From: an uncultured Candidatus Saccharibacteria bacterium | Lineage (GTDB): Bacteria > Patescibacteriota > Minisyncoccia > Phycocordibacterales > SBAW01 | Reading direction: 5' to 3' | Length of the DNA stretch: 64,000 nucleotides | Assembly: GCA_964566795.1 (NCBI GenBank) | Contig: CAZMIU010000001.1 | Location: 333,091-397,090 of the forward strand | In this document: piece after piece, positions 19,104-48,301 of the stretch | Layout: each line of letters starts with the position of its first letter | Position numbering within the stretch: position 1 is the stretch's first letter | Translations under genes and position numbers: made by a program | Notes under the pieces: generated by a model | What the model saw: only the letters and a program-made list of their open reading frames with translations | Databases searched by the model: none | Told to the model about the DNA's origin: nothing

Positions 19104-19205
19104 ACCTTTGCTGGCCGTCTCGGGCTAGAACCGTCCTCGGCCAAGCCCTGCAAGGCGGATTAGCTATATTTTACCCTAGCCCCACGACGCGTCCTGAGCG
19201 CTCTA

Positions 19206-19556
19206 TCAATTTACTAAAACGTGTATTTTCTGCTCTCGTATCTTTGAGGCCTCAGCCAAGGCGTCGGCAATCTCCTCTAAGTGGAGCCTAACCATCTCAT
19301 TGGGAATATGCATGGTGTTGTACCCATTCTTATGGGAGTAGTAGCCACGGCCCAAATCGGCCAAGATCTGCTTAGGATCGGTAAGGTGCTGGATGCCGTC
19401 TACCTCAATGTTTATTTTGGCTCTTGGGAGCGCCAAATCCACAGTTTTAAAACCGTCGTGTAATTCCACGTATACCTTTACATCCCTATCCTCTAGAGCC
19501 TGCCTTAGCGACTCGGCTTCTGCGGTCGGGACCTTAAATCGAGTTAGTTTTAGCAC
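19206..19556 (-). CDS. DUF559-domain protein with a Vsr-like endonuclease fold.
   Basis: TAEAESL...F..VDLALPRAKINIEVDGIQH...D...GY matches the DUF559 pattern (IEvDG.qH). It lies 50 bp downstream of, and co-oriented with, the PHP-ATPase gene. Confidence 0.55.
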   Translation of the reverse strand: MLKLTRFKVPTAEAESLRQALEDRDVKVYVELHDGFKTVDLALPRAKINIEVDGIQHLTDPKQILADLGRGYYSHKNGYNTMHIPNEMVRLHLEEIADALAEASKIREQKIHVLVN

Positions 19557-19606
19557 ACCCCTATTCTACCGCTGTTTTCAGGCAGAAAGTGACAATAGTG
19601 ACACTT

Positions 19607-22216
19607 TTACCGGATATTGAGCTTCTGCATACGTTTCCTCAATGCTTCTTGGCCGCCCTCTAGTATCCTTATGATGTCACTCCTCCTGTCGGAGTTTTCT
19701 ATAGACCCAGTGGCGTAGGCAAAGTCGTACTTCCCGTTCGCCACTCTTTTAATGTCTGAGGCGACAATGTTCTCAGAGTCCGCACATATAACGAGGCTGG
19801 CATTGTGTGTGACGACTATTATCTGCCTTTCCTCTTTTTCCGACTTAACGAAATTGACCAAGTCAGTGGCTACCCCGCCTACATCGAGATCATCTTCAGG
19901 CTGGTCGATAAGGATTGGATATTTTTCGTCGTCAAATCGGAATATGAGCTCAAGCAGGGCTATTGCCTTTTGTCCGCCCGTCATATCCTTAAAGTGCGTT
20001 TCTCCCCCTTTCGTCTTCACTGAGTTAAGGTAGTCGATCTCATATCTGTTCCGGAGAAGCTGCGAGAGCACGGACGATAGATCGCCCGCTTCTACTTTTG
20101 TCCTAATCTTGCCGTCGACAAGTCCGACCACTATTTTCTTTACAGCTTGCTTACTCAACGGCACCGGGGCGTCGCCAAAAAGAGCCTTAATATCCCCGTC
20201 ACCCTTAAGGGCGGGGTCAGAATCCCGAGTGTTTATATTCCTTTCGACAAAAAGTTTGAGTTGGTCGGTATTGTATTTTGCGGATACCTCGATTTTAAGG
20301 AATGAGAACTTTTCGTCGAATTTGATTGTCTTGTAGATAGACTCCTGCTGGGCGTCAAAGTCCGCGTACGAATCTACAAGATCCTCAATGGCCTTATCCC
20401 GTTGCTGTTTCGCCTTCTCAAGCTTCTCGGTAAGGTCTTTAATCTTGTCCTGCAACTCCTGAAGTGAGGAGAGTTCTTTCGTAAGGTCGTCGAGGGCCTT
20501 ACTTTTCTTAATCTTGTCTTCCAGAGCTTTTACGACTTTTCCCTGCTCAGAGATTTCGGCTTCTGCTTCCTTAATCTGCTTGTCGATCCTCCCTATTTCG
20601 TCGGCGATGAGCTTTTTAAGGCTCTCTTTGCTCTTCTTGCTCAATTCCTCCCGGATCAACTCCTGCCGCGCCGCCGAGAGTAAGCTGAATTCCTGATCGG
20701 AAATGAAGATGCTAGCGCCGGTTTTTTGGAGCGACGACAGAATCTCCTTGTCTTGCTTCAGCACATCAACTGCCTTGGTGCCGTTTGATACTGCTTTTTG
20801 GGCTTGCGAATACTTCTGTATTTCTTGGCTGGTAAGCCGGGAATTGCCCGAGCCCTTGTACTTGCCTATCTGCGTGTTCTTCTTTTTTACTTCCTCATCG
20901 ATCTCTTTCTTCGATCCCTGCTTTTTCAGAGCAGCCTCGGTCTCCTTGATCCTGGAATCTGCCGTTATCAGCTTTTCGATAACGCCCTCAATCTTCACCC
21001 TATTCTTCGAGACAAAATTCTCGTAAGCCTGCACCGCGTTCGCAAACCTAGTATTTTTCTTAAGCAGTTTAGTGAGGAACACGTCGCGTTCGCCGGTCTT
21101 TTCGCCATCGTCATATGCCAAAGCGCTCAAGTAGTTCTGTGGGATGTAGAAAATACTTTTAGGGCTTTCCTCGGTGCCGCCGTTCTTCTGTCCATCGCCC
21201 CATACCACTTCGAAGCTGCCCAATGGATAGGGACTGCGCTTTTCTTTATCATTGAATTCTGTAGGATCTATCTTTTGGGCCGTATTCCTCAAAAGGGTCG
21301 ATTTGCCGCTGCCGCGGACACCGATGATCGAGTTGAGGTCTTTATTGAAGTAGACCACCCTTTTATCTCCGGACGATGTCTTGTAAGTTACATGGTCAAT
21401 GACAACCCTGCCGGTCTTAGCCTCGCCCGGATCCCTCTCCTGAATCCGCACCCGGTCTCGTGGCTCGTACAGCGCCTCCTTTAACCCCAGGAAGGTCGTA
21501 TCAGCTTTTATCCATGTAAAGCCGGATCCTATTGTGGATTTTTGATGGGTGTCGGAGCAAAAGAAGACCGGCTTTGGCTCTGCGTCCTTGTAGCGGTCAG
21601 TCTTAAGAAAAAAGTCGGTGTCTTCCTTTTTGCCAAACAACGCATCGGTTTTCTTATCGATTACAACTGCGAGGTTGTTTCCTCGTCCGTCATCCTGCGC
21701 CGACGGCCGGTAGCTGCCGTCGCCGCGCGGACAGGCCACAAGGATATAGTCCTCAAGGTGCTTAATATCCTTATCTTGCTCAAGCGCGGTTTTGAGCGAG
21801 TCAAATGCGATAGAGGTATTTTTTATCTCGGTAGGCGTTAGATCCTTGCAGTACTTGTCATCAATGGTCTTAAGCCTTCCGAGGAATCCTTGGATTTTTG
21901 CCGGAGACACTTGCTCGGAGAAAATGACGTGGATGTGCATCTCCTCGTTATCCTTATTTTGAGGCTGTGTCCTAAACTCAAGATTTGGAAGCACTGTTAT
22001 GCCCTTTGCCTTGAGCATCGCCCCAATATTCTCTAGTTCGTCCTCCGCGAAGTGGAAGTAATTGGTCATGCCGACTACGGCAATATCTTTTGCGACAAGT
22101 TCAGCCACAAACTCGTCGGCGGTGCACCCGTCATATTTATTGGCCAAAAAGGTCTGCGGCGTGTGCACGTGCAAATCCCATTTCCGCCACTCTGTGCCTC
22201 GTTCGTGCTTATTCAT
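19607..22216 (-). CDS. PHP-domain phosphoesterase fused to an SMC/SbcC-like ABC ATPase with a coiled-coil insert (869 aa).
   Basis: N-terminal PHP motif: WDLHVHTPQT, then a metal-ligand His/Asp pattern. Walker A GVRGSGKST. About 350 aa of Lys/Glu coiled coil. ABC signature MTGGQKA, Walker B ILIDQPEDDLD, H-loop VVTHN. It resembles what I believe NCBI labels TrlF-family AAA-like ATPases; that label is unverified. Confidence 0.8.
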   Translation of the reverse strand: MNKHERGTEWRKWDLHVHTPQTFLANKYDGCTADEFVAELVAKDIAVVGMTNYFHFAEDELENIGAMLKAKGITVLPNLEFRTQPQNKDNEEMHIHVIFSEQVSPAKIQGFLGRLKTIDDKYCKDLTPTEIKNTSIAFDSLKTALEQDKDIKHLEDYILVACPRGDGSYRPSAQDDGRGNNLAVVIDKKTDALFGKKEDTDFFLKTDRYKDAEPKPVFFCSDTHQKSTIGSGFTWIKADTTFLGLKEALYEPRDRVRIQERDPGEAKTGRVVIDHVTYKTSSGDKRVVYFNKDLNSIIGVRGSGKSTLLRNTAQKIDPTEFNDKEKRSPYPLGSFEVVWGDGQKNGGTEESPKSIFYIPQNYLSALAYDDGEKTGERDVFLTKLLKKNTRFANAVQAYENFVSKNRVKIEGVIEKLITADSRIKETEAALKKQGSKKEIDEEVKKKNTQIGKYKGSGNSRLTSQEIQKYSQAQKAVSNGTKAVDVLKQDKEILSSLQKTGASIFISDQEFSLLSAARQELIREELSKKSKESLKKLIADEIGRIDKQIKEAEAEISEQGKVVKALEDKIKKSKALDDLTKELSSLQELQDKIKDLTEKLEKAKQQRDKAIEDLVDSYADFDAQQESIYKTIKFDEKFSFLKIEVSAKYNTDQLKLFVERNINTRDSDPALKGDGDIKALFGDAPVPLSKQAVKKIVVGLVDGKIRTKVEAGDLSSVLSQLLRNRYEIDYLNSVKTKGGETHFKDMTGGQKAIALLELIFRFDDEKYPILIDQPEDDLDVGGVATDLVNFVKSEKEERQIIVVTHNASLVICADSENIVASDIKRVANGKYDFAYATGSIENSDRRSDIIRILEGGQEALRKRMQKLNIR

Positions 22217-22554
22217 AAAATTAAGGCCTCAGCCTTACCCGCTACATTACCACTTTTCCCAAGAAAAAACGCCTGTCTCAAAAAAGCGCAAAAGTATGGA
22301 GATAGTTGGAAGTATTTGCAATTGACGACGTGCTTTTTAGGTTTTCGGATACAAAAATTCATCTAAAAATGCTCAAAATGAGCGTTTTTGATTGTAAATT
22401 TTTGCGGTACTGTCGCGCTCGTGCTACAATTGAAATTAATAACGGTAACTGGTCCGATACACGAGACCTAACATAACCGGCACAATCTCCGATCGCGACG
22501 CCGTCGATCACGCGGGACCGCCAACACTATCAGTTCGTTAACAACAGAATAGTT

Positions 22555-23838
22555 ATGGCAAACGTATCTATCAAGTACGTCTCTATCGACGTGCTTAAAC
22601 CCGCGGCGTATAACCCGCGCAAGATCTCGCCAGAGGCCCTGGCGCAGCTCAAAGAGAGTATCGCCAAGTACTCTGTGGTCGACCCGTTAATCGTCAACTC
22701 CGCTCCCAAGCGCAAAAACGTGGTCATTGGGGGCCATATGCGCCTTAGGGCGGCCAAAGAGCTCGGGCACAAGGAGATACCGGTCGTGTATCTCAATATC
22801 CCCGACATCAAGAGGGAGAAAGAGCTCAATCTTCGCCTGCACAAGAACATGGGCGAATTCGACTTCGATCTCCTCAAAAAGCTCGATTTCGACCTCTTGC
22901 TCGATGTAGGGTTCGACAAGGACGCTCTCAACGACATCTGGGCAGAGCAGCTTAAATCGCGCTCCGATGCCTTCGATGTCGATAAGGAGCTCAAGAGCAT
23001 CAAGAAGCCGCAGACGCGGCTGGGCGACCTCATACTCCTCGGCCCGCACAAGCTCTTGTGCGGCGACTCGACCAAGCCCGAGAACTTAGAGCACCTGCTC
23101 GGCGACGAAAAGGCGGCGATGATATTCAGCGATCCCAAGTACAACATCAAGTTGGACTACAACGGCGGGGTCGGCGGCAAGAAGTCCTACGGCGGCAAAG
23201 TCGACGATAACCTATCCGACGAGAAGTACCGCGACTTCCTCAAGGCCAGCATGGAGGCAGCACTCGCGGTCACGCAAGAGGACGCGCATATCCTGTACTG
23301 GTGCGATCAGACCTATATCTGGCTCGTGCAATGCCTCTACCGCGACCTCGGCATTGCCAATAAAAGAGTTTGCATCTGGCTCAAGAATGGCCAGAACCCT
23401 ACCCCGGGCGTAGCCTTCTCCAAGTGCTACGAGCCCTGCGTATATGGCGTGCGCGGCAAGCCGTACCTCAATAAGAAGCTGACTAAGCTCAATGAGGTGC
23501 TCAACGCCGACACGACAACGGGCAACAGCCTGCTAAGCGAATCGCTCGACCACCTGGATGTATGGGCGGTCAATCGCGTGCCCGGCAAGGACATGGAGCA
23601 CGCGACCTCGAAGCCTCCGGCACTGTATGAGAAAGCGATAAGGCGCTGCACAAAGCAGGGAGACATAATCCTGGATTCCTTCTCCGGCTCGGGCAGCACA
23701 CTTATTGCGGGCGAGCAGACAGGCCGCAAGGTCTACGCGGTCGAGCTTGAGCCTATCTTTTGCGACCTCACCATTCGTCGATATGAAGCGCTAACAGGCA
23801 CAAAGGCCAAGATTATCCGCTCCGATGAAGAAGTCTAG
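22555..23838 (+). CDS. ParB-like nuclease domain fused to a beta-class N6/N4 DNA methyltransferase.
   Basis: ParB N-domain: VSIDVLKPAAYNPRK...GGHMRLRAAKELGH. MTase motif IV variant FSDPKYN lies before motif I ILDSFSGSGST, the beta-class order. Fusions of this kind are typical of phage and plasmid orphan MTases. Confidence 0.8.
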   Translation: MANVSIKYVSIDVLKPAAYNPRKISPEALAQLKESIAKYSVVDPLIVNSAPKRKNVVIGGHMRLRAAKELGHKEIPVVYLNIPDIKREKELNLRLHKNMGEFDFDLLKKLDFDLLLDVGFDKDALNDIWAEQLKSRSDAFDVDKELKSIKKPQTRLGDLILLGPHKLLCGDSTKPENLEHLLGDEKAAMIFSDPKYNIKLDYNGGVGGKKSYGGKVDDNLSDEKYRDFLKASMEAALAVTQEDAHILYWCDQTYIWLVQCLYRDLGIANKRVCIWLKNGQNPTPGVAFSKCYEPCVYGVRGKPYLNKKLTKLNEVLNADTTTGNSLLSESLDHLDVWAVNRVPGKDMEHATSKPPALYEKAIRRCTKQGDIILDSFSGSGSTLIAGEQTGRKVYAVELEPIFCDLTIRRYEALTGTKAKIIRSDEEV

Positions 23839-24256
23839 GAGAAATCAGTTCCTGGACCAGCTCTGCACAATTCCTAATGTCTCGCTCGCGTGCGAGAAGA
23901 CAGGGCTATCTAGGAACACCATCTACCGGTGGCGCGGCGAGGACGAGGAGTTCAAGAAGGAAATGGACGCCGCGCTCAAAGCAGGTGTCGAGACCATCAA
24001 CGATTTGGCCGAGAGCAAGCTCATCAGCCACATCAACAACGGCAGCATGAGGGCTATCGAGTATTGGCTTACCAATCACAAGAAAGCTTATGTGCGCCCG
24101 AAGCCCAAGGACTTCTGGGACGATCTCTTGGGCAAGATTCCCGTCACCTCAATCAACATCCTGCCACCCCTGCCCCCTTCCCAGGCGCAGGCGGAGCACT
24201 TGGAGAAGATTCGCAAAGAGCGGGAGGAGGGGCAGCATGGATCAGTTAATCAGTAA
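23825..24256 (+). CDS. Phage terminase small-subunit-like HTH protein.
   Basis: FLDQLCTIPNVSLACEKTGLSRNTIYRWRGEDEEFKKEMDAALKAGVETINDLAESKL is the classic N-terminal HTH of small terminase / phage DNA-binding proteins. Confidence 0.5.
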   Translation: MKKSRRNQFLDQLCTIPNVSLACEKTGLSRNTIYRWRGEDEEFKKEMDAALKAGVETINDLAESKLISHINNGSMRAIEYWLTNHKKAYVRPKPKDFWDDLLGKIPVTSINILPPLPPSQAQAEHLEKIRKEREEGQHGSVNQ

Positions 24257-24270
24257 TCATTAACATAGTT

Positions 24271-24507: not shown

Positions 24508-24511
24508 CCAC

Positions 24512-24537
24512 AAACCCCGCGAACTATCGCGGGGTTT
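24512..24537. terminator. Intrinsic terminator hairpin.
   Basis: CCCCGCGA-ACTA-TCGCGGGG is followed by TTTGTGTG. Confidence 0.5.
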
Positions 24538-25234
24538 GTGTGTTATATGCCTGTCCTACATGCCACCTAAGGCGCTCATAGGAGCCAGTATCAAGCGCTC
24601 GTTGGCCACTGAGCATTGAGGAGAAGAATATCGGCACTTGTCCACTATCCAATTCAAGCCAATGAAAGCCGTGGTCCTCATCAAACGATAGTTTATCCGC
24701 AAAGTGCGCTCTTATTATCCCGCACGACCCTGCGTTAGACACTACTATTGCCTTGGGCCGTATCTCATTGAGAGCTTCGAGAAAGATATCGAGCTGATCG
24801 CGGCCAAACTCGTTGAGAGCCTTATCCTTGTCGCGTACAAGCTGGAGAAAATCATTTTGCTTCGTCTGCCGGTATACGAATAAGTCGATGTGCTGGAAAT
24901 GCGTCCTGCAGAGTTTCGCCATCTCATGCATACGCTTAAAGAACGCATACCCTTCCTTGACGAGCCTGCCGGAGCGCACAGAATCATCGACGCTGTTTGG
25001 ATTGGAGGCAAAATTGCTCCAGGAGTAAAAGGATCCAGGATCCCTCGTCTCGAATTCTGTGCCGCGCATAAGCTTACGGACTCCAACAGGATTAAACGAA
25101 GGGTTCATGCCGATAAACAGGATGCCGCCCTGTTTAAACTCGTCATAGAAGATAGGCGCGTATACTTCCTTGTTGTCGCTAAAATATTTCTTCCATACCG
25201 CAAGAATCTTGCGGTTTATTTTCTCATTAATCAC
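24524..25234 (-). CDS. Hypothetical protein, possibly UDG-superfamily-like.
   Basis: GILFIGMNPSFNP is reminiscent of the motif A of Mug/TDG-type glycosylases (GINPG). The GTG start is inferred. Weak. Confidence 0.3.
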   Translation of the reverse strand: MINEKINRKILAVWKKYFSDNKEVYAPIFYDEFKQGGILFIGMNPSFNPVGVRKLMRGTEFETRDPGSFYSWSNFASNPNSVDDSVRSGRLVKEGYAFFKRMHEMAKLCRTHFQHIDLFVYRQTKQNDFLQLVRDKDKALNEFGRDQLDIFLEALNEIRPKAIVVSNAGSCGIIRAHFADKLSFDEDHGFHWLELDSGQVPIFFSSMLSGQRALDTGSYERLRWHVGQAYNTQTPR

Positions 25235-25469
25235 TTGCTCTAGCGGGTTTTAGAGCGACGGAGTAAGCCCAAATCAAAAGGCTCCTGGCCATCGCGACAG
25301 AACCTTTCGGCCCTGCCCATAGCGGTTTCCCGATATGACCCGCTAGAGTGACTCTGACCAGGAGTCCTTTGATCTCTAGCGGGATTTTCGACCTTGCCGC
25401 AACAGGATGTTACGGGGTAGGCCCTTTTATATAATTGTCCGTAATACGATGCTATGTATTACGCCCTTG

Positions 25470-25560
25470 ATATTAACGCACATTTCTAAACCTGCTAAGG
25501 CCTCTTACTAATGGGCGACGAATTGACTAGTCTGCATAGCAGTAGATACTTGATCGGGAG
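25470..25560. repeat. Left copy of a roughly 90-bp imperfect direct repeat (about 70% identity) that flanks the DUF4279 gene.
   Basis: ttgatattaacgcacatttctaaacctgctaaggcc...gcgacgaattgactagtctgcatagc at 25470-25560 matches ttgatactaacgtatatccccatccctgctaagccc...gcgacgaatccgctagtttgcatagc at 25990-26080. Confidence 0.6.
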
Positions 25561-25984
25561 GATATATATCAAGCCCTAGTCCGATATTCAACTCAGTAAG
25601 TCTTTTAAGCAAGACGGGGTCAAAGACTAAACCACTGTTTGCCTCAATTTTAATACCAACGAAAAAATCTAGCTTCCCTCCACTATTATTTACTCTCTTA
25701 AATATTTCCTTATAAGGAGCAATCTTATCAAGGAACTTATTCAAAGCCATTTCAAGCGACTCGTTATCGCTATTTTCCCATTTTTCAAGAAAACTGAAAC
25801 CGAATTGGGATTCAGAATATTCACCAGAGAGAACCTTCCCTTTTTGGTCTTTCCGTGTCTTACCGACCTCCTTTAATCTTCCAATAATAATGCTCGGAAT
25901 TGCAGAAAGCCGTTCATGCTCCTCTTTCAAGTTTGAAGTAGGGTGTTTTACTCCCAAAGAAACTATGTATTCGTATGGATTCAT
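25508..25984 (-). CDS. DUF4279-like protein.
   Basis: YEYIVSLGVKHP...KRLTELNIGLGLDIY follows the two-part pattern of DUF4279, which ends in ...DIY. Recalled from memory, unverified. Confidence 0.45.
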   Translation of the reverse strand: MNPYEYIVSLGVKHPTSNLKEEHERLSAIPSIIIGRLKEVGKTRKDQKGKVLSGEYSESQFGFSFLEKWENSDNESLEMALNKFLDKIAPYKEIFKRVNNSGGKLDFFVGIKIEANSGLVFDPVLLKRLTELNIGLGLDIYPPDQVSTAMQTSQFVAH

Positions 25985-25989
25985 AACTT

Positions 25990-26080: not shown

Positions 26081-26114
26081 ATACAGGATTGACAGGTCTG
26101 GCATTAATGGTCAT

Positions 26115-27434: not shown

Positions 27435-28078
27435 GACGTAAAAAGTTCTCTCTCCTTAGGAAAGAAATAAAGAGTTATGTGATAAATACCGTAAGTTATA
27501 AAAAAAGCCGCAAATATATCTATGCTGTAGTGCAGGTGTCCAAGCAAGGAAAACACACCTGAAAGTACCGACCAGCAAAGGAAAATATACCGCAATACTT
27601 TGTCCTGCCAGAACATCAAAGCCAAGAGGAAAGTAACTCCTGTATATCCGGAAAAGAAAAGGTCAGCCCCTCCAAACACCCTAGAAACAATAACTCCTGC
27701 ATCAAAGGATATTTGAGTTGGAAAGGGAGCTAAATGCGTCAGGGAGACAAAGATTGCCCGAATGAAATAGAAGATTGATAGGGCATAAAGCACAAACAGG
27801 ATGCGCTGCGGCCTAATAACGCATAGCCCAACAACAAAAACCACCAAGACAAAAGCGCTGTAGACGAAGAACCAGCCCACATCGAATACCGGTATATTCG
27901 AAAGGATTAGATCGGCAACTGCACTACTGGCATTCTTGCTTGCATACACTGCCGCATAGAGGTTAGAAGCTACACTTGCCATGAAGAGCGCTGTTGCGAC
28001 TAAGACTGACACGACAAAGCGTCTATTGAGACAAATTTTCCTATATCGTCCTAAGACACTGATAAACCACTGATTCAT
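27428..28078 (-). CDS. PAP2-superfamily-like membrane protein.
   Basis: Six TM helices. FSGYTGVTF and GHLHYSIDIFAAFFI resemble PAP2 / sphingomyelin-synthase motifs 2 and 3 (SGH; H...D). Confidence 0.4.
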   Translation of the reverse strand: MNQWFISVLGRYRKICLNRRFVVSVLVATALFMASVASNLYAAVYASKNASSAVADLILSNIPVFDVGWFFVYSAFVLVVFVVGLCVIRPQRILFVLYALSIFYFIRAIFVSLTHLAPFPTQISFDAGVIVSRVFGGADLFFSGYTGVTFLLALMFWQDKVLRYIFLCWSVLSGVFSLLGHLHYSIDIFAAFFITYGIYHITLYFFPKERELFTSY

Positions 28079-32829: not shown

Positions 32830-32886
32830 AATTTCAATTTTGTGGTGACTCTATATTTCTTCGCCTTGTTCCTGTTACCCACGTAC

Positions 32887-33093: not shown

Positions 33094-33096
33094 ACT

Positions 33097-34537: not shown

Positions 34538-34559
34538 AGTGATTTATATAGTTATTTTT

Positions 34560-35129: not shown

Positions 35130-35132
35130 ACT

Positions 35133-35804: not shown

Positions 35805-35932
35805 ACAGTAATTGATTTTTAGAAGATAAACGGAAAGACATGCGCTGCTCTACCCTAGACCCTGGTAATGGAGCCATATCACTGATGCCATGATCGCCGC
35901 CATAATTGAACCGGTTACGATGTAGCTCATTA

Positions 35933-36650: not shown

Positions 36651-36710
36651 TTGGACCATAGGGAAAGCGAATAAACGCCGGACACACCGGCAGCCTTAGA
36701 GAAAAGCTGA

Positions 36711-38455: not shown

Positions 38456-38460
38456 CTTTC

Positions 38461-39246: not shown

Positions 39247-39313
39247 TTAGGAGGTTAATTTAACATACTGAAAGGAATACTGAAACTCTAAATGTAGTGC
39301 ATTAAAACCGCAC

Positions 39314-40606: not shown

Positions 40607-41827
40607 TCAGTGCCCGCCTCCACTTTCTATTTTTCCGTCAAAAATCGTGGGGTCTGCCTCTCCCTCTACGCGCAAAAGTCCCCACGCGCCGCGGTCGAGT
40701 CGGGCAAGCGCATGGTCGACAAGCATATAATTTCCGGGGTAGTCGGCTTTGAACTCAACCACCGCGGCACCGCCGGCGGGAATGAGGGTCGTCTGTATGC
40801 TTCGCGCAGGAGGACTCACAATATCTCCCTCGCGATATACGCGGTCAAATATCTCCCCGATTACATGAAAGCTTGAAATGAGATTGACGCCGCCGTTTCC
40901 TACGTAGAGGCGGACGGTCTCCCCGACTTTGACATTCATGTTGTTCTGCAATGCTCCTGTTTTTCCGTTAAAGACTATGTATTGCGGCTTCCCGTCGAGC
41001 ATCGCTTGTGCGTCAAACAACTGCAGTCCCTTTCGACCCAATTCCCCGGATGTATAAAACTCTCCCTGCATCACGTAAAACTCTTTATCGACCGGAGGCA
41101 ACCCTTCTTTTGGCTCGATGAGAATGAGCCCATAGAGTCCGTGCGCCATATGACTCGGCACATTAGGATGAGCACAATGGTATACGTACAAGCCGGGATT
41201 AAGCGCTTTGAAACGGAATGTTTTTGATTCTCCTGGGGCGACGTTCGTCGCAGGTGCTCCGCCGCCTGGCCCATTAACCGCATGTAAATCAATGTTATGC
41301 ATATGGAGGCTCGTCTTGTCGTTATGAAGCGTCAATTCGACCGTGTCGCCCTCGCGAGCTCTCAAAAACGGCCCCGGCACGGTGCCGTTGAACGTCCAGT
41401 AGTTGAGAGTGACCCCGGGAGCAATTTCAGAGATGACTTCTTTTGTGGTAAGTTCCATTTTGACCGTCTGCGGTTCCGAGCGATTAATTGGCGGTGGAAT
41501 GTCCGCGGGATTTTTTGCTATGTCGGGAACTCGCTCGAAGGAACCGAAATTCCTGAAGAACTGAAGTACATTTTTGAAAGGAAGAACGGGGCCTTCGCTC
41601 GGGCCGAACGTTTTAAGAGAAAAAGGATACTGAAAAGCGTTTGGTATTCCGTTTGGAACGTAAAATGCAAGAGAAACCCCGACAAATATTGCCACAAGCG
41701 CCGCGGTAAGCTTCCACGAATGGAACTGACGGAGCACGAGAAAAATGAAAAGAGCCGCAAAAAAATACGCAATAGCAAGACCGAATGCCTGCACGATGTA
41801 TTGCCAAAGGTAAGAAAGTAGTTCCAT
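40607..41827 (-). CDS. nirK: Copper-containing nitrite reductase (NirK-type two-domain multicopper protein) with N-terminal TM helices.
   Basis: LHNDKTSLHMHNIDLHAVNGPGGG (T2Cu His) and YVYHCAHPNVPSHMAHGLYGLILIEP (T1Cu Cys/His/Met). An N-terminal 60-aa hydrophobic anchor. Confidence 0.8.
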   Translation of the reverse strand: MELLSYLWQYIVQAFGLAIAYFFAALFIFLVLRQFHSWKLTAALVAIFVGVSLAFYVPNGIPNAFQYPFSLKTFGPSEGPVLPFKNVLQFFRNFGSFERVPDIAKNPADIPPPINRSEPQTVKMELTTKEVISEIAPGVTLNYWTFNGTVPGPFLRAREGDTVELTLHNDKTSLHMHNIDLHAVNGPGGGAPATNVAPGESKTFRFKALNPGLYVYHCAHPNVPSHMAHGLYGLILIEPKEGLPPVDKEFYVMQGEFYTSGELGRKGLQLFDAQAMLDGKPQYIVFNGKTGALQNNMNVKVGETVRLYVGNGGVNLISSFHVIGEIFDRVYREGDIVSPPARSIQTTLIPAGGAAVVEFKADYPGNYMLVDHALARLDRGAWGLLRVEGEADPTIFDGKIESGGGH

Positions 41828-41842
41828 AGACTGATTAGATTA

Positions 41843-42420
41843 TCATAACAAATCTCCATTGGGACACCTAATCCTTTGGCAATCTTGGCGACCGTTTGCC
41901 ATGGCGCGCAGTGACGTTTCAAGAATTTCCTTTCCATGATTAACGATTATTGAGATATGTCCTTCGTTGGGATAGAACGTTACTTTTGCGCCGGTGAATT
42001 GTTTTATCAATTCTCGCATCTCCGCCTCTTTAACTTGATTATCAAGTGCGCCATGCCACACTTGTATTTTTGACGCATCGATATTCGAAATGTAAATCCC
42101 CAGGTACGTTGTCCTATGAGCATACCGTCATAGGCCGCACCTTTTGCGCCTTGGCGCACGCTTTCAGCGAGCGAAGCTACCATGATTTGGAGCGTATCGG
42201 AACCTTCCAATGCTTTTCTGTCCGGTTCTACCCAGCGGCTTGAGGCGCGTTCCAATAATCGCTTTGCTTTCTCCTCGGTGTTAAACGTATTTTTTGTCAT
42301 CGGAAGCATAATCCACGGCACCCATCGCGCGAGAAAAGAAACAAGTCGGGTTGTCCGCCCAACACCCGATACGACACCGCACCGCGTTATCGGGTGCGGG
42401 ATTTGATACATGCAAGCCAA
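41843..42420 (-). pseudogene. Disrupted alpha/beta-hydrolase C-terminal fragment. Two overlapping ORFs sit in different frames and the N-terminal nucleophile region is missing.
   Basis: ORFs 42007..42420 and 41843..42061 together encode ...AYDGMLIGQRTWGF...KVTFYPNEGHISI, the His region of the catalytic triad. There is no GxSxG. Confidence 0.4.
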
Positions 42421-42429
42421 CGAGCCATA

Positions 42430-42972
42430 TTACACAGCTCCCCGTCTCAGCCTCCACATTCCCCACCACGCTGCTGGTGCAAGTACTATCACACTCGCCA
42501 TACCTGGGAAGTAGCCATACGGTTCTGGAGTTAGGAGCGGAAGGAAAAAGTGTGCGAGTTCGGTAACGCCCATTGCTGTAAAGAAAGTCCAAGCCAAATA
42601 GTATCCAAAGGAATATTCGCGACTGACGAAATACGGGATCAGGAGCCATGCGGCAGCAAGCGTGTACAGCAGGATTATGAGAAAGCTCGCTTCCGGCACA
42701 GGAACTCCGGTTATCTCCGAAAGTCGCGGAAAGAAATCCATCTCCCGTTCCTCTATCTTGTGGAGTACAAAGAAAGAGAGTGTGAGGAAGTACGGAATCT
42801 TTATGGAAGCAAAAGAAGCCTTGGTTGGGATAAGGAGCCAAAGAATGAGTCCACCGAGAAATCCGAATACGAAGAGGAATGCGGGCAGTAGACCCAGCAT
42901 GACGTAGCCGAGCGCTACTACGGCAATAGTGAACATGACCGCAAAAGCCATTGTAGAAACACTTCTTTTCAT
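42430..42972 (-). CDS. HXXEE-domain membrane protein.
   Basis: LHKIEEREMDFF gives H-x-x-E-E within a multi-TM protein. Confidence 0.55.
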   Translation of the reverse strand: MKRSVSTMAFAVMFTIAVVALGYVMLGLLPAFLFVFGFLGGLILWLLIPTKASFASIKIPYFLTLSFFVLHKIEEREMDFFPRLSEITGVPVPEASFLIILLYTLAAAWLLIPYFVSREYSFGYYLAWTFFTAMGVTELAHFFLPLLTPEPYGYFPGMASVIVLAPAAWWGMWRLRRGAV

Positions 42973-43007
42973 GGGTATATCTTACACCTTGTCATAGGCA
43001 TTACCGA

Positions 43008-43065
43008 CGCGTCTCGGGCGCGATAACCTAGCACGAGTTGGTTGCGACTCCTGAACGAAGTTCGA
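43008..43065. repeat. Left att-like direct repeat: a 28-bp exact core plus a degenerate copy of the tRNA-Gln 3' end.
   Basis: gcgtctcgggcgcgataacctagcacga at 43008-43035 is identical to 48197-48224. The following 30 bp resemble the tRNA-Gln 3' part. Confidence 0.6.
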
Positions 43066-43119
43066 ACTATTGCAATGTCCGGAAACACCGTATTTAGCCG
43101 CGTAACGGTTACAGATTAA

Positions 43120-43518
43120 TTAACTGACCTTGATCTGAAAATTATACATCCCCATACCACATACTCCCTGCACCTTATCTCCCGATTTTGGAGTACCTAA
43201 ATCTATTTCCTCCTCACCGGTTGGTTGCAATATCTTCTGAAAACCAACAGAACGGACCACGAGCGACGCTGAGCAATCATATGTACCATCTGTCTTCACA
43301 ATCAATTTGGTAGGTACTCCGCCTTTAATTTCCGTGATGCGCGGAGAATAACCGCCCTTTGCAGTCACAGTCACATACTGCACACCGTCTCTAACCTCGA
43401 CATTCTGTGATTGCGCGACTTCGTCGCCTGAAGACGCCGATCTATCAGAAACAAAGTAGAGAGTACCTCCAATGAGGGCAATACTGAGGATAATGGATAT
43501 GACTGTGTTTTTTTGCAT
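43120..43518 (-). CDS. Membrane-anchored cupredoxin-like (Cupredoxin_1) protein.
   Basis: TM anchor, then a beta-rich domain with YDCSASL and GVCGMGM (Cys/Met copper-site-like). It is a paralogue-like match to the gene at 6953-7453. Confidence 0.5.
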   Translation of the reverse strand: MQKNTVISIILSIALIGGTLYFVSDRSASSGDEVAQSQNVEVRDGVQYVTVTAKGGYSPRITEIKGGVPTKLIVKTDGTYDCSASLVVRSVGFQKILQPTGEEEIDLGTPKSGDKVQGVCGMGMYNFQIKVS

Positions 43519-43534
43519 AGATTAACTAATAAGA

Positions 43535-44542
43535 TTATATGTTAAATAAAGGATCAATAATACCGAGCCCTGCAAGTCCTGCGAGGAGCGCGAAAGCTCC
43601 GAGGCCAATTACCAAAACACCTGCCGATTTGAAGAAAAGTGGCGCGTGTCTTGATTGTGCGAATGAGGCAGAGCCGAACGACAGAAGCGCGAGCATTGGT
43701 AGCGTGCCTAGGGCAAACGCTGTCATGATCAAGAACCCCGAGAGAAAGGAACCACTTGAAAGTGCCGCAACTTGCATCGCTTGAGTAAATCCGCACGGCA
43801 AGAAGAAAGTCCCAACACCGACCAAAAACGGCGCTATGGTCTTATGCTCCATCTTACGGAAGAAGCTAAAGACTCCAGAAGGTAGCGCAATCATATTTTT
43901 CTCAAAAATTCCTACCAGATTAAGCCCGAGTACAATCATCACCACCGATGCGATGATCCCGAGGATTGCGGTAGCGGTAAAACTGATACCAACTGCACTT
44001 CCGATGGCACCAAGCACACCGCCAAGCACAGCAAAACTGATTAGTCGGCCTCCGTGAAAGAGCATCATCGGCTTTACATCGCTTATCTTGTCCTGGGACA
44101 CCGTTGCAGAAAGCGAGAGGACAAGCCCTCCAACGACCGCAAGACAGCTCGAGACGGAAGCAATGAGACCGATGATAAAACTCGTAACTGGGGTTACTGT
44201 TCCTCCCAGGCCGAAATTCAGAATCCCTGACTTTTGGACAATGAAAAAGAGAGCCAGAAGTGCTAAGCCAATAGGCAAGGCTTGCCAAATGACGCCAGTA
44301 TCCTTTTTCTCCCTAGTTTTCTTCTCAACCGAAAGTGAATAGCCGTTGTGTTTTATCTTTTCGGTCAAAACCTCCGCGAGTTTTTGCTGACTGTCATCAA
44401 GACTTGTGTCAAAAGAAACTGTCTCTTGTTTTAGGTTGACGTACGCATTCTCAATACCCATATGTTCATTGAGAACGTCCTCAATGAGGATTTTACATGA
44501 AGCGCAGTGGATGCCAGAAACGTGAAATGTAAGTGTTTTCAT
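43535..44542 (-). CDS. HMA-domain fused to a multi-TM permease, TauE/SafE- or DsbD-like.
   Basis: N-terminal GIHCASCK (GMxCxxC metal-binding), then about 7 TM helices with FLPCGF. Confidence 0.55.
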   Translation of the reverse strand: MKTLTFHVSGIHCASCKILIEDVLNEHMGIENAYVNLKQETVSFDTSLDDSQQKLAEVLTEKIKHNGYSLSVEKKTREKKDTGVIWQALPIGLALLALFFIVQKSGILNFGLGGTVTPVTSFIIGLIASVSSCLAVVGGLVLSLSATVSQDKISDVKPMMLFHGGRLISFAVLGGVLGAIGSAVGISFTATAILGIIASVVMIVLGLNLVGIFEKNMIALPSGVFSFFRKMEHKTIAPFLVGVGTFFLPCGFTQAMQVAALSSGSFLSGFLIMTAFALGTLPMLALLSFGSASFAQSRHAPLFFKSAGVLVIGLGAFALLAGLAGLGIIDPLFNI

Positions 44543-44558
44543 AAACCGCTTTGCTGAG

Positions 44559-44780
44559 TTAGAGTGTCTCGCCGCGCTTTTCCAGCATCATGTGATGAAT
44601 TGTTGCGATTTGAAGCCAGGTTGCAATAAGGATAAGTATGCCGGCACAGAGTAGAGCGTCGATTTTAGTAACACCCAATACGGAATTGTCAGCTCCTCCG
44701 AAGACTGCGGCTAAAAATGAAATCACTCCAATCAAACCGACCGCAACACTGGCGACATGCATTACTTTTGATAGTTTCAT
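44559..44780 (-). CDS. Small two-TM membrane protein.
   Basis: 73 aa, hydrophobic. It sits inside the copper operon. Confidence 0.3.
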   Translation of the reverse strand: MKLSKVMHVASVAVGLIGVISFLAAVFGGADNSVLGVTKIDALLCAGILILIATWLQIATIHHMMLEKRGETL

Positions 44781-44810
44781 ATATTTTAGGTTTAATTATT
44801 TTTAATAAGT

Positions 44811-45425
44811 TTATTTGTACCACTGCACATACCACGACTGCATCTGCTGTATCTCCTCTGACTGTGAGGAAATGATATTTTTTGCAAGCTGTTGCATTTC
44901 AGGTCGATTGGTCCCTGATTGGAGCATATTCGCCATCATAATCGCCAGCTGATGATGAGGGATCATTTGTTCAATAAAAGCCTTATCGAAATCAGATGCG
45001 TTTTCCAGTGCAGTCATGTCTTCCTGTCCACCCATATGCATTCCGCCTTGCGACATCATGCCGCCACTCATCATGCCCGTGCTTACCTTTGGCACAGTGC
45101 TTCCGAACCAATCCTTATACCAGCCGTTCATATCTTGAATCTCTGCTGTCTGGGCTGCAATGATAGCTGTTGCTAAGGTTTTAATCTCTGGACGCTTTGC
45201 CTTTTGGAGCGCGAGGTTTGCCATAGCGATTGCACCGTCATGATGAGGAATCATTTGCTCGATGAAATGTTTGTCGATTGTGTTGGCAACTTGAGTGTTT
45301 CCATTTTCCCAATTCATCATTCCAGATCCTCCATATCGCATCATCGGAGTGAAGACTGAGACCAAGAGAATTCCAAGGACTATTCCTCCGATACCGTATA
45401 CTATTTTGTTGTTTTGATTGTTCAT
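44811..45425 (-). CDS. DUF305-domain protein associated with copper resistance.
   Basis: A tandem repeat of FIEQMIPHH...AI.MAN, with Met/Gly-rich linkers. Confidence 0.75.
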   Translation of the reverse strand: MNNQNNKIVYGIGGIVLGILLVSVFTPMMRYGGSGMMNWENGNTQVANTIDKHFIEQMIPHHDGAIAMANLALQKAKRPEIKTLATAIIAAQTAEIQDMNGWYKDWFGSTVPKVSTGMMSGGMMSQGGMHMGGQEDMTALENASDFDKAFIEQMIPHHQLAIMMANMLQSGTNRPEMQQLAKNIISSQSEEIQQMQSWYVQWYK

Positions 45426-45458
45426 ATATTTTTATTAAAATTAATTTGATAATTTTGC

Positions 45459-47753
45459 TTACAATCGTTTGGCTTTGATTCTAAGCGAATTCGACACTAC
45501 GGATACTGACGACATTGCCATAGCAAAACCTGCAAAGACAGGGTTCAAGAGCCACCCAAATACCGGATATAAAGCCCCAGCCGCAAGAGGAATGCCTACA
45601 ATATTGTAGATGAATGCCCAGAAGAGATTCTGCTTGATGCCGCGCATAGTGATCTTTGAAAGTTTGATCGCCTTTACAAGCTTCGAAATATCGCCACCAA
45701 GAAGGGTGATACCCGCCGATTCGATGGCAACATCGGTCCCGGTCCCCATGGCAATTCCCACATCTGCCTGTGCAAGTGCTGGTGCATCGTTTACGCCGTC
45801 ACCCGCCATGGCGACTATCTTGCCTTGCGACTGGAGTTCCTTAATTTTATTGAGCTTATCCTCTGGGAGTACGTGAGCCATCACCTCATCAATCCCCACG
45901 AGTGATGCGATGTACTTTGCCGCTCTTTCGTCATCTCCCGTGAGCATAACCACCTGTATGCCGAGCTTGTGAAGATTCTTTACGGCCTCGACTGACTCCG
46001 CTTTTATCTCATCAGCAACCATAACGAACCCGAGTACTTTTTCTCTAGTAGCGAGAATGACTGGGGTCTTTCCTTGCAAGGTAAATTCATTAAGTCTAGC
46101 GACATCAAATGGAAGTTTGAGATCGCTTACGAGCTTTACATTACCAACAAAATACTCATCGGTATCAATAACCCCGCGCAAACCCTTGCCTTGTATCCCC
46201 TCAAAATCGGAAACGCTCGACAATGGGATATTTTTCTCTTGTGCGTACTGTACAATCGCGTGCGCAATCGGATGCTCTGACTTCTTCTCAAGCGATGCGA
46301 GAATTGATACAAGGGCATCATCTTTTAAATCTGAGAGATTCTGTATATCGACTAGGGTGGGTTTGCCTTTAGTGATCGTTCCTGTTTTATCAACCACAAC
46401 CGTATTCACCTTGTGGAGTTTCTCAAGCGTAGCGGCATCTTTAATGAGAATACCTTCTTTGGCCCCCTTACCGACTCCTACGATAATTGCCGTCGGTGTT
46501 GCGAGTCCGAGCGCGCACGGGCACGCAATTACGAGAATTCCCACAAAGGATACAAGGCCGAATGACAAGGCCTGAGAGAACCCAAGATACTGCGACCCAA
46601 CGATAAGCCATGCTCCGAGAGTAAGAAAAGCGATTACGAGAACGATGGGCACAAATACCGCCGATATTTTATCCGCAAGTGCTTGTATGGGGGCACGACT
46701 TCCTTGAGCATCTTCAACCATCTTGATAATCTGGGCGAGGAGTGTTTCTGATCCAACTTTGGTGGCCTTGAATGTGAAGGAACCACTGGTATTGATTGTC
46801 CCGGACACGACATTGTCACCAAGCTTTTTCTGGGCTGGCATCGGCTCACCGGTAACCATAGATTCGTCGACGAAGGAACTTCCCTCGGTAATAACGCCAT
46901 CGACAGGGATCTTTGCTCCGGGCTTAACGATAATAAGATCGCCATGTTTAACATCGTTTACTGAAATTTCCAATTCTCTTCCTTCACGGATAACTAACGC
47001 CGTTTTGGCCTGAAGATTAAGAAGTTTCTCAATGGCATCACCTGTCTTTATCTTTGATCGCGCCTCGAGATATTTTCCAAGCGTAATAAATGTAATGACT
47101 ACGATTGTCACGTCGTAGTACTGGTAGTCAACGTTTATAAATGGACGAAGAACATCCTCAAAAGCACTGACTGCAAAACTGTATAAAAAGGCTGCAACCG
47201 TGCCGATGCCGATAAGCGTATCCATGTTCGCCTTGCCATAGCGGAGGAATCTATAAAAACCGAGAAGATAGGGTTTGCCAACGACAAACAAAATGTATGT
47301 GGCAAGTATTGGAAGCAGGTGATGAAAAAATTCTTTGAGCGTATAGCTCATTGCGGGAGCGATACTGTATTCAGCGAGTATGTCCCAGCCCATGACAAAG
47401 GCGGCGAAAACGGCGATGGGAATAGCTGATAGCACTTTTATTCGCATATCCGCTACTTCCGCTAGCTTTTCTTTCTTGGACTGGTTGAGACCCAGGTGTG
47501 ACGCGTGTTCACTTGGAGACATCCCCATTTCTTCGGCACTAGTCGGAACTTCTAGGGAATATCCGAGTGGTTCAATATGCTTGGAAAGGTCATGAGGATT
47601 TGTTTTTGATGGATCAAAAGAAACCTTTGCTTTTTCTGTACCATAATTAACTTCCGCGGAATGTACGCCCTCCACCTTCTTAAAAGTCTTCTCGATTACC
47701 GAGGAGCACGAGGCACAATGCATTCCTTTGACTCTGTATGTTTGTGTATGCAT
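45459..47753 (-). CDS. copA: Copper-translocating P1B-type ATPase.
   Basis: N-terminal HMA domain ([13 protein letters not shown]), CPC in [28 protein letters not shown]. 764 aa. Confidence 0.9.
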
Positions 47754-47754
47754 A

Positions 47755-48030
47755 TTATTTCCTCTTAAGCTTATACACCTTAATGATCTCCGCCTTTGCT
47801 TTAGCGGTCTGTCCAGTTTTCATCTGATGGTGGACGCAGTGATCAAGATGGTTTTCAAGAAGCAAATCCTCGACGTTAGATAGCCCTTGCTTCACGGCGG
47901 ATGTCTGAGTAATCACATCTATGCAATAGGTATCATTTTCAACCATCTTTTGAAGACCTCGAACTTGTCCCTCAAGCAATTTGAGGCGACGAACAACCTT
48001 TGCCTTATTTTTATCGTCCATGTACTCCAT
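47755..48030 (-). CDS. csoR: CsoR/RcnR-family metal-sensing repressor.
   Basis: [36 protein letters not shown]...[10 protein letters not shown] carries the C-H-C copper-ligand signature. Confidence 0.8.
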
Positions 48031-48034
48031 ATGA

Positions 48035-48064
48035 ACCACTATACCCCCTAGGGGGTATAGTGGT
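48035..48064. promoter_or_regulatory. 30-bp perfect palindrome ACCACTATACCCCCTAGGGGGTATAGTGGT, a putative CsoR operator.
   Basis: Exact inverted repeat with a C5/G5 core, like known CsoR operators. It abuts the csoR start. Confidence 0.6.
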
Positions 48065-48106
48065 CAAGTATATATCTGAGTGAAATAATAAACGTCAAGC
48101 TTAAAC

Positions 48107-48136
48107 AGAAAGACCGCCCTTTCGAGCGGTCTTTCT
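48107..48136 (-). terminator. Hairpin terminator downstream of tRNA-Gln.
   Basis: AGAAAGACCGC-N8-GCGGTCTTTCT, with a T-rich tail on the minus strand. Confidence 0.45.
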
Positions 48137-48196
48137 GTCTGAATACTGCTCTCAGCAGGTATGCCTTTTCTGAATAGTGACTCGGAGATTATCTAT

Positions 48197-48226
48197 GCGT
48201 CTCGGGCGCGATAACCTAGCACGACT
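48197..48226. repeat. Right att-like direct repeat abutting the tRNA-Gln 3' end.
   Basis: The 28-bp core is identical to 43008-43035. Confidence 0.6.
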
Positions 48227-48301
48227 TGGCTGCGGGACTAGGACTCGAACCTAGATAACAACATTCAGAGTGTTGCGTCCTACCATTAGACGATCCCGCA
48301 A
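48227..48301 (-). tRNA. tRNA-Gln(CTG).
   Basis: Hand-folded: acceptor TGCGGGA/TCCCGCA; anticodon stem CAACA/TGTTG with loop CTCTGAA (anticodon CUG); T-arm CTAGG-TTCGAGT-CCTAG. The discriminator and CCA are encoded. Confidence 0.85.

Follow-up and report, generated by a model that had tools for sequence, protein, structure and literature searches.

A strain-variable 29-kb integrative island carrying a large serine recombinase gene at the 3′ end of tRNA-Gln in a Patescibacteria genome

How did a 29-kb block of compositionally distinct DNA come to lie directly against a tRNA gene in a bacterium of the Candidate Phyla Radiation (CPR, Patescibacteria)? The question is raised by a 64,000-nucleotide stretch of contig CAZMIU010000001.1, hereafter the window. 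CPR bacteria have genomes of ~1 Mb with little or no respiratory chain, and genes for oxidases, copper-containing nitrite reductase (NirK) and metal resistance are scattered in some of their lineages. A preliminary description of the window, made by eye, had reported an AT-richer island of ~29 kb that ends at the 3′ end of tRNA-Gln, and had proposed the serial acquisition of integrative elements at this one tRNA. Our analysis supports the view that the block at 19114–48228 is a horizontally acquired integrative island at the tRNA-Gln 3′ end. As to how it arose, we estimate a probability of about three in four that it is a single 29.1-kb integrative element, put in by its own large serine recombinase (LSR) right after the discriminator base of tRNA-Gln(CTG). 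Variable between strains and roughly 3% the size of a ~1-Mb genome, this unit carries cyoBCD, NirK, two P1B ATPases, Dsb proteins and a copper cassette. Its interest lies mainly in the wider family to which it seems to belong and in the entry of respiratory and copper cargo into a minimal genome.

The island stands out clearly in composition. Its GC content is 0.480 (19114–48228), as against 0.564 in positions 1–19113 and 0.558 in 48229–64000. The same sharp break is seen in 500-nt windows (0.480 ± 0.039 in the island, n = 58; 0.561 ± 0.033 in the flanks, n = 69; Mann–Whitney p = 1.6e-17). Tetranucleotide usage correlates with that of the flanks at 0.07–0.49 within the island and at 0.85–0.96 outside it. 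GC content at third codon positions (GC3) is 0.35–0.62 per gene in the island and 0.64–0.75 in the flanks, and the rise in AAA and GAA codons that had been noticed by eye is real. The described island (GC 48.0% vs 56% in the flanks) therefore holds, with its left boundary having been placed within 40 bp and its right boundary exactly. It is not AT-rich throughout, however: the genes of a ParB-methylase and a TerS-like helix-turn-helix (HTH) protein (22555–24256, thus the stretch at 22.5–24.3 kb) are an exception, with a GC content of 0.56 and GC3 of 0.77 and 0.76.

The exact boundaries come from strains that lack the block. An exact-protein look-up of the 188-aa open reading frame (ORF) in the left flank retrieved three conspecific metagenome contigs, each from a different sequencing run: L086 (DRR198497), L087 (DRR512863) and L088 (DRR198509); here and below, related contigs and loci are numbered with the prefix L. 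In all three, the tRNA-Gln 3′ end is fused straight to window position 19113, so that the empty tRNA-Gln site, which had been suggested earlier as something to look for in related genomes, fits to the nucleotide. With a slash marking the junction, these contigs read ...GTCCTAGTCCCGCAGC/AAAGGTATG, also given as ...GTCCCGCAGC/AAAGGTATG, and their left flank is 99.9–100% identical to that of the window. The occupied junctions read, on the minus strand, ...CCCGCAGC/CAAGTCGTGCTAGG... on the tRNA side and ...GAGACGGCCAGC/AAAGGTATG on the far side. It follows from the comparison of empty and occupied junctions that the island measures 29,119 bp, about 19114–48228, and the only sequence common to attB, attL and attR is CAGC. 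The sites are as follows.

48227–48300 (body 48229–48300), minus strand: tRNA-Gln(CTG), the integration target (ARAGORN; Rfam, 63 bits)
19110–19150, minus strand: left terminus, attL, with the P arm and the CAGC core at 19110–19113; empty-site contigs resume at 19113
48188–48232, minus strand: right terminus, attR, with the CAGC core at 48229–48232 and then the P′ arm CAAGTCGTGCTAGGTTATCGCGCCCGAGACGC, defined against empty site L086
attB junction: ...GTCCCGCAGC/AAAGGTATGAC...
attP junction, reconstructed: ...CCCGAGACGGCCAGC/CAAGTCGTGCTAGG...

Read on the minus strand, the left terminus is CAGGGCTTGGCCGAGGACGGTTCTAGCCCGAGACGGCCAGC, followed by the native AAAGGTATG. The 3′ end of the tRNA gene points into the island. 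Its body (48229–48300) shows 0 mismatches between L086 and the window and is thus the same in occupied and empty alleles, while the CA that completes the encoded CCA comes from the element. Immediately after the tRNA comes the 188-aa gene, whose ribosome-binding site (RBS) and start region overlap the integration site (window 19103–19113; L086 702–715; CAGC/AAAGGTATG). After insertion this gene is parted from the tRNA, and its transcription must start within the left end of the island.

Could the block instead be a chimeric assembly, a mis-binned piece, or a native low-GC region deleted elsewhere? Assembly trouble at variable sites typically produces breaks such as that of L001, an independent contig of the same strain, which stops exactly at the crossover in the tRNA (window 48231); this break is consistent with strain heterogeneity at the tRNA-Gln site within that sample. 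However, independent contigs from several runs reproduce the occupied junctions at 100% identity (the left one in L083, L084 and L085, the right one in L002), which excludes an assembly artefact, and termini conserved in unrelated genomes mark the same boundaries. Vertical conservation is contradicted as well, since relatives have 2.6–6.5 kb, not 32 kb, between pyrG and the gene of an ABC-F protein. We therefore give practically no credence to an artefact or a vertically inherited feature.

We next turn to the enzyme that may have carried out the insertion.

26115–27434, plus strand: LSR, 439 aa, the proposed integrase (Pfam; phrog_95)

The protein has the domains Resolvase (PF00239, 8e-21), Recombinase (PF07508, 4e-14) and Zn_ribbon_recom (PF13408, 4e-8) and matches the integrases of phrog_95 at 3e-65. 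It contains a YARKST motif, and YALYARKSTEQD, near residue 29, aligns with the N-terminus of SPbeta integrase, the closest solved structure; by its position in the sequence, the serine in YALYARKSTEQD is the putative catalytic nucleophile. The LSR is complete, can be aligned with its relatives over its entire length and is the sole recombinase found among the island ORFs with Pfam and PHROGs. Among the ~34 island ORFs, Pfam detected no tyrosine integrase or transposase domain, and no relaxase, coupling protein or type IV secretion domain either. The preliminary description had thus been right about the mobility genes, namely the LSR, the ParB-methylase (22555–23838) and the TerS-like HTH protein (23825–24256).

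The shared core of only 4 nt fits the chemistry of a serine recombinase and not that of a tyrosine integrase. This matters for the idea that the island is of the classical tyrosine-integrase type, with its integrase lost, the LSR a mere passenger and a 47-nt repeat (described below) as its att sites. Islands at tRNA 3′ ends are usually made by tyrosine integrases, according to the Islander paper, and the repeat overlaps 8 nt of the tRNA. Yet no island ORF has a tyrosine integrase domain, the outer junctions share 4 nt, and no displaced host tRNA end is found distally: the best distal matches to the tRNA 3′ end, in the window and 38 relatives, were 12–16 of 22 nt, no better than in shuffled controls. 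Moreover, this LSR family is linked to a tRNA 3′ end in 47 of 47 loci and its tree tracks tRNA type, as shown below. A lost tyrosine integrase is accordingly very improbable. The att logic implied earlier has to be replaced as well: the sequence common to attB, attL and attR is just 4 nt long, and the enzyme is an LSR in place of a tyrosine integrase with its duplication of a tRNA segment.

If the LSR is the integrase, its relatives should lie at similar sites. We collected the best 80 of more than 575 metagenome matches (62–83% identity) and 38 matches from IMG/VR (44–77%), 118 loci in all. Wherever a tRNA lay downstream of the LSR gene (47 loci), the nearest one was encoded on the other strand and turned its 3′ end towards the LSR gene, in 47 out of 47 cases and at distances from 155 nt to 8.3 kb. 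Across LSR lineages, the targeted 3′ ends are those of tRNA-Gln (16), Ser (16), Arg (5), Glu (4), Asp (2), Trp (2), Lys (1) and Asn (1). The choice of tRNA follows the LSR tree: the nearest neighbor has the same tRNA amino-acid type in 34 of 46 cases, whereas 2000 permutations gave a mean of 10.9 and a maximum of 21. At tRNA-Gln itself, a CPR metagenome-assembled genome (MAG; L074) has, next to pyrG, the tRNA, LSR, HTH and ParB-methylase genes in the same order as the window, and the LSR gene adjoins tRNA-Gln in L036 and L059 too. Taken together, this is strong comparative evidence that the LSR integrates these elements at tRNA 3′ ends, presumably by catalyzing the event itself.

The element termini are conserved across loci. 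The P arm follows the consensus CAGGGCTTGGCCnACnACGGTTCTAGCyCGAGwCGGCCAGC in L101, L107, L100 (twice), L118, L006 and L110, and the similarity across these six loci stops right past CAGC, that is, at the boundary set by the empty site. The P′ motif, (A)GTCGTG(C/A)TAG...CGAGAnGC, directly follows the tRNA in many loci and occurs beside tRNA-Gln, Glu, Ser and Trp.

The P′ end also has a second copy inside the island. The att-like repeats reported at 43008 and 48197 proved to be a real direct repeat of 47 nt (43000–43046 and 48188–48234), 89% identical, with 0 such pairs expected by chance. By contrast, a weak third match at ~19180 was due to chance and was not recovered at ≤3 mismatches in 24; the real left terminus is the one at 19110–19150. 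The internal copy and the copper cassette that it delimits are the following.

43000–43075, minus strand: internal att-like junction (repeat family D1), a P′ copy preceded by a degenerate stretch resembling a tRNA end or P arm, with the core CAAC
43120–48039, minus strand: copper cassette without a recombinase, encoding a cupredoxin, HMA-DsbD_2, DUF305, CopA and CsoR (Pfam; NCBIfam, CopA-type)

The internal P′ copy matches the tRNA-proximal end at 29 of 30 nt, and the left half of the junction matches the P consensus at 17 of 41. Internal P′ duplicates were not found in other loci with long cargo, so the duplication is specific to the window island, and no P′ motif was found beside the copper modules of L031, L101, L013, L138 and L036.

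Does the internal junction mean that the copper cassette (43047–48228) and a 23.9-kb LSR element were inserted separately at this tRNA-Gln, as the earlier reading of serial acquisition would have it? Several features point that way. The cassette is bracketed by the internal copy of the tRNA-proximal end, has a composition of its own (GC 0.454 vs 0.484–0.487 for the rest of the island) and has its nearest relatives in L031, not where those of the rest of the island are found. Tandem arrays also occur among related elements, as seen from a clean internal P–CAGC–P′ junction in L100 and from repeated tRNA 3′ ends in L014 and L068. However, in a haplotype survey of contigs from nine sequencing runs, a thin sampling mostly from one study, the block was all-or-none: either the full arrangement or the empty site was seen, with no intermediate. 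Exact-protein look-ups with the LSR and with the ORF beside the internal junction likewise returned only the same arrangement. Furthermore, a junction with CAAC in place of CAGC and a left half matching at 17/41 seems too decayed to have arisen in a lineage whose left flank is 99.9% identical to that of an empty-site strain, and the internal P′ duplicate is found in no other locus. Of the earlier proposal, then, the integrative island stands. The internal P′ copy and the array in L100 speak for serial acquisition, while separate insertion in situ appears quite unlikely in view of the all-or-none block and the degenerate junction. Most economically, the island is read as an array of two parts that had been put together earlier. 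The copper cassette would be a second element, accreted in tandem and now travelling with the first, and the array would now move as one unit because its internal core (CAAC) no longer matches.

Upstream of the LSR lies what appears to be the backbone of the element.

22555–23838, plus strand: fusion of ParB-N with an N6/N4 DNA methyltransferase (Pfam; phrog_498, 3e-94)
23825–24256, plus strand: TerS-like HTH protein (phrog_4044, terminase small subunit, 1e-11; Pfam HTH_Tnp_1_2)

More than 3 kb upstream of the LSR is available in 84 of the 118 loci. In this region, the ParB-methylase is encoded on the same strand in 51 of the 118, a TerS-like HTH protein in 64 and the terminase large subunit (TerL) in 51. 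TerL-bearing relatives include such close ones as L097, L098, L099 and L101, and the TerL of L205 matches phrog_38 at 4e-80. To judge from these genes, the backbone is derived from the packaging region of a phage; the window copy, by its gene content, is not a prophage. The backbone is compositionally mosaic: GC3 is ~0.77 in the ParB-methylase and TerS-like genes, 0.54 in the LSR gene 2 kb away and 0.35 in an ORF with DUF4279.

These observations suggest how the element would work. The LSR would recombine an element site, consisting of P arm, CAGC and P′ arm, with a chromosomal site that consists of the tRNA 3′ end, CAGC and an A-rich trailer with the RBS and start of the next gene; with so short a crossover, no long target duplication would arise. 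Related elements would share a phage-derived backbone made up of the ParB-methylase, the TerS-like protein, TerL (lost here), the LOOT RNA described below and the LSR, and cargo would gather mostly between the LSR gene and the tRNA-proximal end. In the window, this cargo comprises a Dsb/P1B-ATPase set typical of the family, cyoBCD, NirK, a sortase and the copper cassette, bracketed by the second P′ end. We infer that the whole block moves as a unit.

A number of observations weigh against the view of a single element inserted by its own LSR. No candidate for a recombination directionality factor was identified, and the attP junction of an excised circle has 0 exact matches in IMG/VR. The dyad symmetry in the reconstructed attP (19085–19150 fused to 48188–48232) was seen by eye only, and the in-register match of the P arm to the tRNA 3′ end, 16 of 23, is not above the chance level of a free regional search. 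A tblastn search of the window with the TerL proteins of the family found nothing, and PHROGs gave no structural (virion) match in the window backbone ORFs. Finally, L086 differs from the window at 17 positions within 48332–48856, on the pyrG side (~3%), as opposed to 1 of 1343 in 17771–19113. Such lopsided divergence suggests a homologous-recombination tract that ends at the island, and strains may have acquired the island through homologous recombination in the pyrG-side flank instead of fresh integration.

Some of these points would suit a decayed, immobile remnant of a CPR prophage, with the polymorphism resulting from homologous recombination or from an old, segregating insertion. TerL directly follows the TerS-like gene in 51 of the 118 relatives and not in the window, 38 relatives lie on contigs from IMG/VR, which holds predicted viral sequences, and the contrast between a right flank ~3% diverged and a left flank 0.07% diverged in the empty-site strain suggests a recombination tract. 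On the other hand, the LSR shows no truncation when compared with its relatives, and both termini are intact and match the family consensus. Even in the TerL-bearing L194 and L205, PHROGs detected no capsid or portal gene in the examined stretches, which instead carry TerS, TerL, methylases, helicases and a diversity-generating retroelement (DGR), so that the family may never have been a conventional phage. A decayed prophage thus seems unlikely; besides, it concerns present-day activity and leaves the origin of the insertion undisputed. The DGR (Avd and a reverse transcriptase, phrog_1423, 3e-112) lies between TerL and LSR at 3610–5004 of L194, an IMG/VR locus beside tRNA-Glu.

A TerS-like gene kept without TerL is a trait of phage satellites. 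Members of the family with TerS and without TerL, including the window copy, may therefore be satellites of CPR phages. Neither a replication module (primase or replicase, origin) nor a helper-responsive repressor was found among the island ORFs with Pfam, PHROGs and PADLOC.

Besides proteins, the backbone includes an RNA. The preliminary description had listed a pseudogene in the island; none was found, and a tblastx comparison of all island gaps with ~210 related loci revealed no gene remnant. The same screen did uncover nucleotide-level conservation at ~25270–25435, which Rfam identified as LOOT.

25296–25423, minus strand: LOOT RNA (Rfam RF03000; 70.7 bits vs a gathering cutoff of 46.4, E = 1.3e-11)
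24524–25234, minus strand: 236-aa ORF that starts 64 nt past LOOT (no match in Pfam, PHROGs or PADLOC)

To our knowledge, LOOT is an orphan motif known only from metagenomes, and the literature mentions that we could retrieve add nothing on its function. Rfam detected it in 10 of 10 relatives tested (71–90 bits). A covariance model built from the LOOT sequences of the relatives then found it in 55 of the 118 LSR loci, compared with 3 of 80 pyrG-anchored controls (Fisher p = 3e-12). LOOT is positioned 127–485 nt upstream of the LSR gene and divergent from it in 35 cases, and 43–138 nt downstream in five. In most of 57 loci with LOOT, an ORF of at least 50 aa starts 43–102 nt past it on the same strand. 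Their products are of several unrelated kinds, among them small membrane-anchored and zinc-ribbon proteins. Instead of a free small RNA, LOOT may be a leader or promoter-proximal element that belongs to a variable gene slot. We also considered RNA-guided targeting by LOOT and found no support for it: between LOOT and an att junction, the longest run of identity or complementarity is on average 7.16 nt for cognate pairs and 7.24 nt for non-cognate ones (p = 0.69).

Do these loci make up one family? We tentatively propose, at odds that we would put a little short of even, that they represent a widespread type of element, met here in CPR bacteria, with an LSR diversified over tRNAs, a packaging-derived module (ParB-methylase and TerS, with or without TerL), LOOT adjoining the LSR gene and shortly ahead of a variable gene slot, and an expandable cargo bay that lies between the LSR gene and the tRNA, that its TerS-only members may be satellites, and that it is a major route of gene gain and loss in CPR bacteria. 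Were this so, oxidases, nitrite reductase, metal resistance, DGRs and defence systems would have entered ultra-reduced bacteria largely by this route. In addition, LSRs linked to tRNA 3′ ends could be a source of new site-specific integrases whose natural landing sites are conserved, and the orphan LOOT motif would gain a genomic home. Literature searches that combined CPR with serine recombinase, tRNA or prophage, or that were aimed at LOOT and TrlF, returned no prior description of this element family; in particular, they turned up no account of CPR serine recombinases that form a family linked to tRNA 3′ ends, and none of the genomic context of LOOT.

How does the element compare with known systems? 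A close parallel in layout may be the staphylococcal cassette chromosome (SCC) elements (SCCmec, ACME, COMER), composite islands at the 3′ end of rlmH that are moved by large serine recombinases, Ccr. SCC elements likewise combine an LSR, and insertion at the extreme 3′ end of a housekeeping gene that stays active, with cargo-rich cassettes, tandem att arrays and recombinase-less riders, copper resistance included. Here, the 47-nt repeat bounds the copper cassette and L100 has an array; the internal junction of the window is degenerate, and no separate mobility of the cassette was seen. The two-part array would represent SCC-like accretion of a recombinase-less copper cassette outside Firmicutes. 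Unlike SCC, however, the family in question targets various tRNA genes, resides in CPR hosts and has LOOT and a phage-like backbone (ParB-methylase, TerS-like protein, often TerL). Also, the solved structure nearest to the window LSR is SPbeta integrase, and the likeness to SCC elements is one of layout.

Tycheposons of Prochlorococcus reportedly are elements at tRNA 3′ ends with a deep-branching tyrosine recombinase. They share with the present family the tRNA 3′-end targets, tandem islands, niche-adaptive cargo in a streamlined genome and some satellite-like members, whereas the present family differs in having an LSR with a 4-nt shared core, different hallmark genes and LOOT. With LSR phages (SPbeta SprA, phiC31, A118, TP901-1) the element has in common the Resolvase/Recombinase/Zn-ribbon architecture, minimal identity between att sites and, in many relatives, terminases; unlike them, it lacks TerL, portal, capsid and tail genes. 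For the most part, the integrases of such phages insert into protein-coding genes or between genes and are not known for a preference for tRNA 3′ ends. Islands of the Islander/TIGER type resemble the element in that they lie at a tRNA 3′ end, deviate in composition, vary between strains and bring adaptive cargo. In contrast to them, the window has neither a tyrosine integrase nor a displaced tRNA fragment, and the crossover falls after the discriminator base, not inside the tRNA.

Islands linked to tRNAs are as such textbook knowledge, and those of Patescibacteria have already been predicted, from composition alone (PMC12455944). That study (mSystems 2025) reported hundreds of composition-predicted islands in groundwater Patescibacteria, one of them with a type I restriction-modification (R-M) system, a cargo also seen at the tRNA-Gln loci L011 and L051. 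The words tRNA, integrase and recombinase are absent from its main text, and the study defines no boundaries, att sites, integrase family or backbone. Compared with such composition-based surveys, which provide neither boundaries nor mechanism, the present island is an example resolved to the exact nucleotide.

The accessory metal and redox functions noted earlier are indeed present. Metabolic or metal cargo accounts for 21 of the 29 kb, and the cargo region measures 20.8 kb. Apart from the genes already listed, the island contains the following.

19206–19556, minus strand: DUF559/Vsr-like endonuclease-fold ORF, 116 aa (Pfam DUF559, 9e-5)
19607–22216, minus strand: TrlF-family AAA-like ATPase, 869 aa (NCBIfam NF045780, 470 bits vs a cutoff of 350)
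25508–25984, minus strand: DUF4279 ORF, 158 aa, GC 0.38 (Pfam, 1e-4)
27428–29962, minus strand: PAP2_C membrane protein and Zn/Cd-type P1B ATPase without an HMA domain (Pfam; TIGR01525, 595 bits)
29979–32829, minus strand: cyoD, cyoC and cyoB, subunits IV, III and I of a bo3-type quinol oxidase (NCBIfam)
33097–37118, minus strand: 283-aa membrane protein, SurA_N-like protein, DsbB, two DsbA-like thioredoxins and a 135-aa ORF (Pfam)
37436–39913: LysM-M23 peptidase (plus strand), F0 ATP synthase subunit a (minus strand) and sortase (minus strand) (Pfam)
40607–42972, minus strand: NirK, then two ORFs of no assigned function (TIGR02376, 358 bits vs a cutoff of 296)

Some of this cargo recurs beside the LSR of other loci. 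Homologs of the PAP2_C protein and P1B ATPase adjoin the LSR in L097 (63% identity) and L122 (53%), and the Dsb and P1B ATPase set does so in L097, L102 and L122. NirK homologs are found in L035 (76%) and, beside the LSR, in L126 (58%), while copper genes adjoin the LSR in L101 and L138. The copper cassette proteins are 67–77% identical to those of the Nomurabacteria locus L031, whose PyrG is only 65% identical to that of the window, which points to a transfer among CPR lineages.

The oxidase subunits exceed their NCBIfam cutoffs (CyoB, 1062 bits vs 1020; CyoC, 249 vs 224; CyoD, 97 vs 81). No cyoA (subunit II) was detected within 29979–33948, the upstream 283-aa and 68-aa ORFs having no COX2 signal in Pfam, NCBIfam or PDB sequences. 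The F0 subunit a (38461–39246) matches Pfam ATP-synt_A at 7e-39, and all its NCBIfam scores for F0F1 subunit A are below the cutoff; the gene is an orphan, with no further ATP synthase genes nearby. The C-terminal part of the TrlF-family ATPase matches the anti-phage protein Ppl (PADLOC) at 1e-25, which makes it a possible anti-phage gene.

Finally, we asked what the locus looks like in other genomes. The PyrG encoded at 48700–50337 is at most 77% identical to that of any GTDB species representative, and its top matches are from Candidatus Adlerbacteria and other Paceibacteria MAGs, which indicates that the host is a CPR/Patescibacteria bacterium similar to Candidatus Adlerbacteria. The order ftsE–ftsX–pyrG is kept across ~80 related genomes, usually with tRNA-Gln after pyrG. 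From pyrG to the ABC-F gene (14686–16137), the distance is 32.5 kb here and 2.6–6.5 kb in L014, L025, L038, L046 and L068. Homologs of the left-flank ORFs at 17455–17853 and 18537–19103 come after the tRNA in L019 and L021.

The tRNA-Gln site is a recurrent hotspot, with tandem or decayed elements. In other Paceibacteria, it shows serial copies of element ends or tRNA 3′ ends (L100, 5937–7349; L014, 12058–13440; L068, ~12650–12720). Defence-type cargo lies at the site in further CPR genomes (L011, 5836–10620; L051, 13297–19183; L074, 12763–16620) and includes type I R-M systems, in L011 and L051 specifically, as well as Fic, HNH and PD-(D/E)XK nucleases, DUF4145, Hypoth_Ymh and Schlafen-like AlbA_2 proteins. 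Within the window, two more GC dips occur outside the island, one at 1–1000 (0.486) and the other at 53001–54000 (0.499), the latter adjoining tRNA-Thr(CGT) at 52931–53006.

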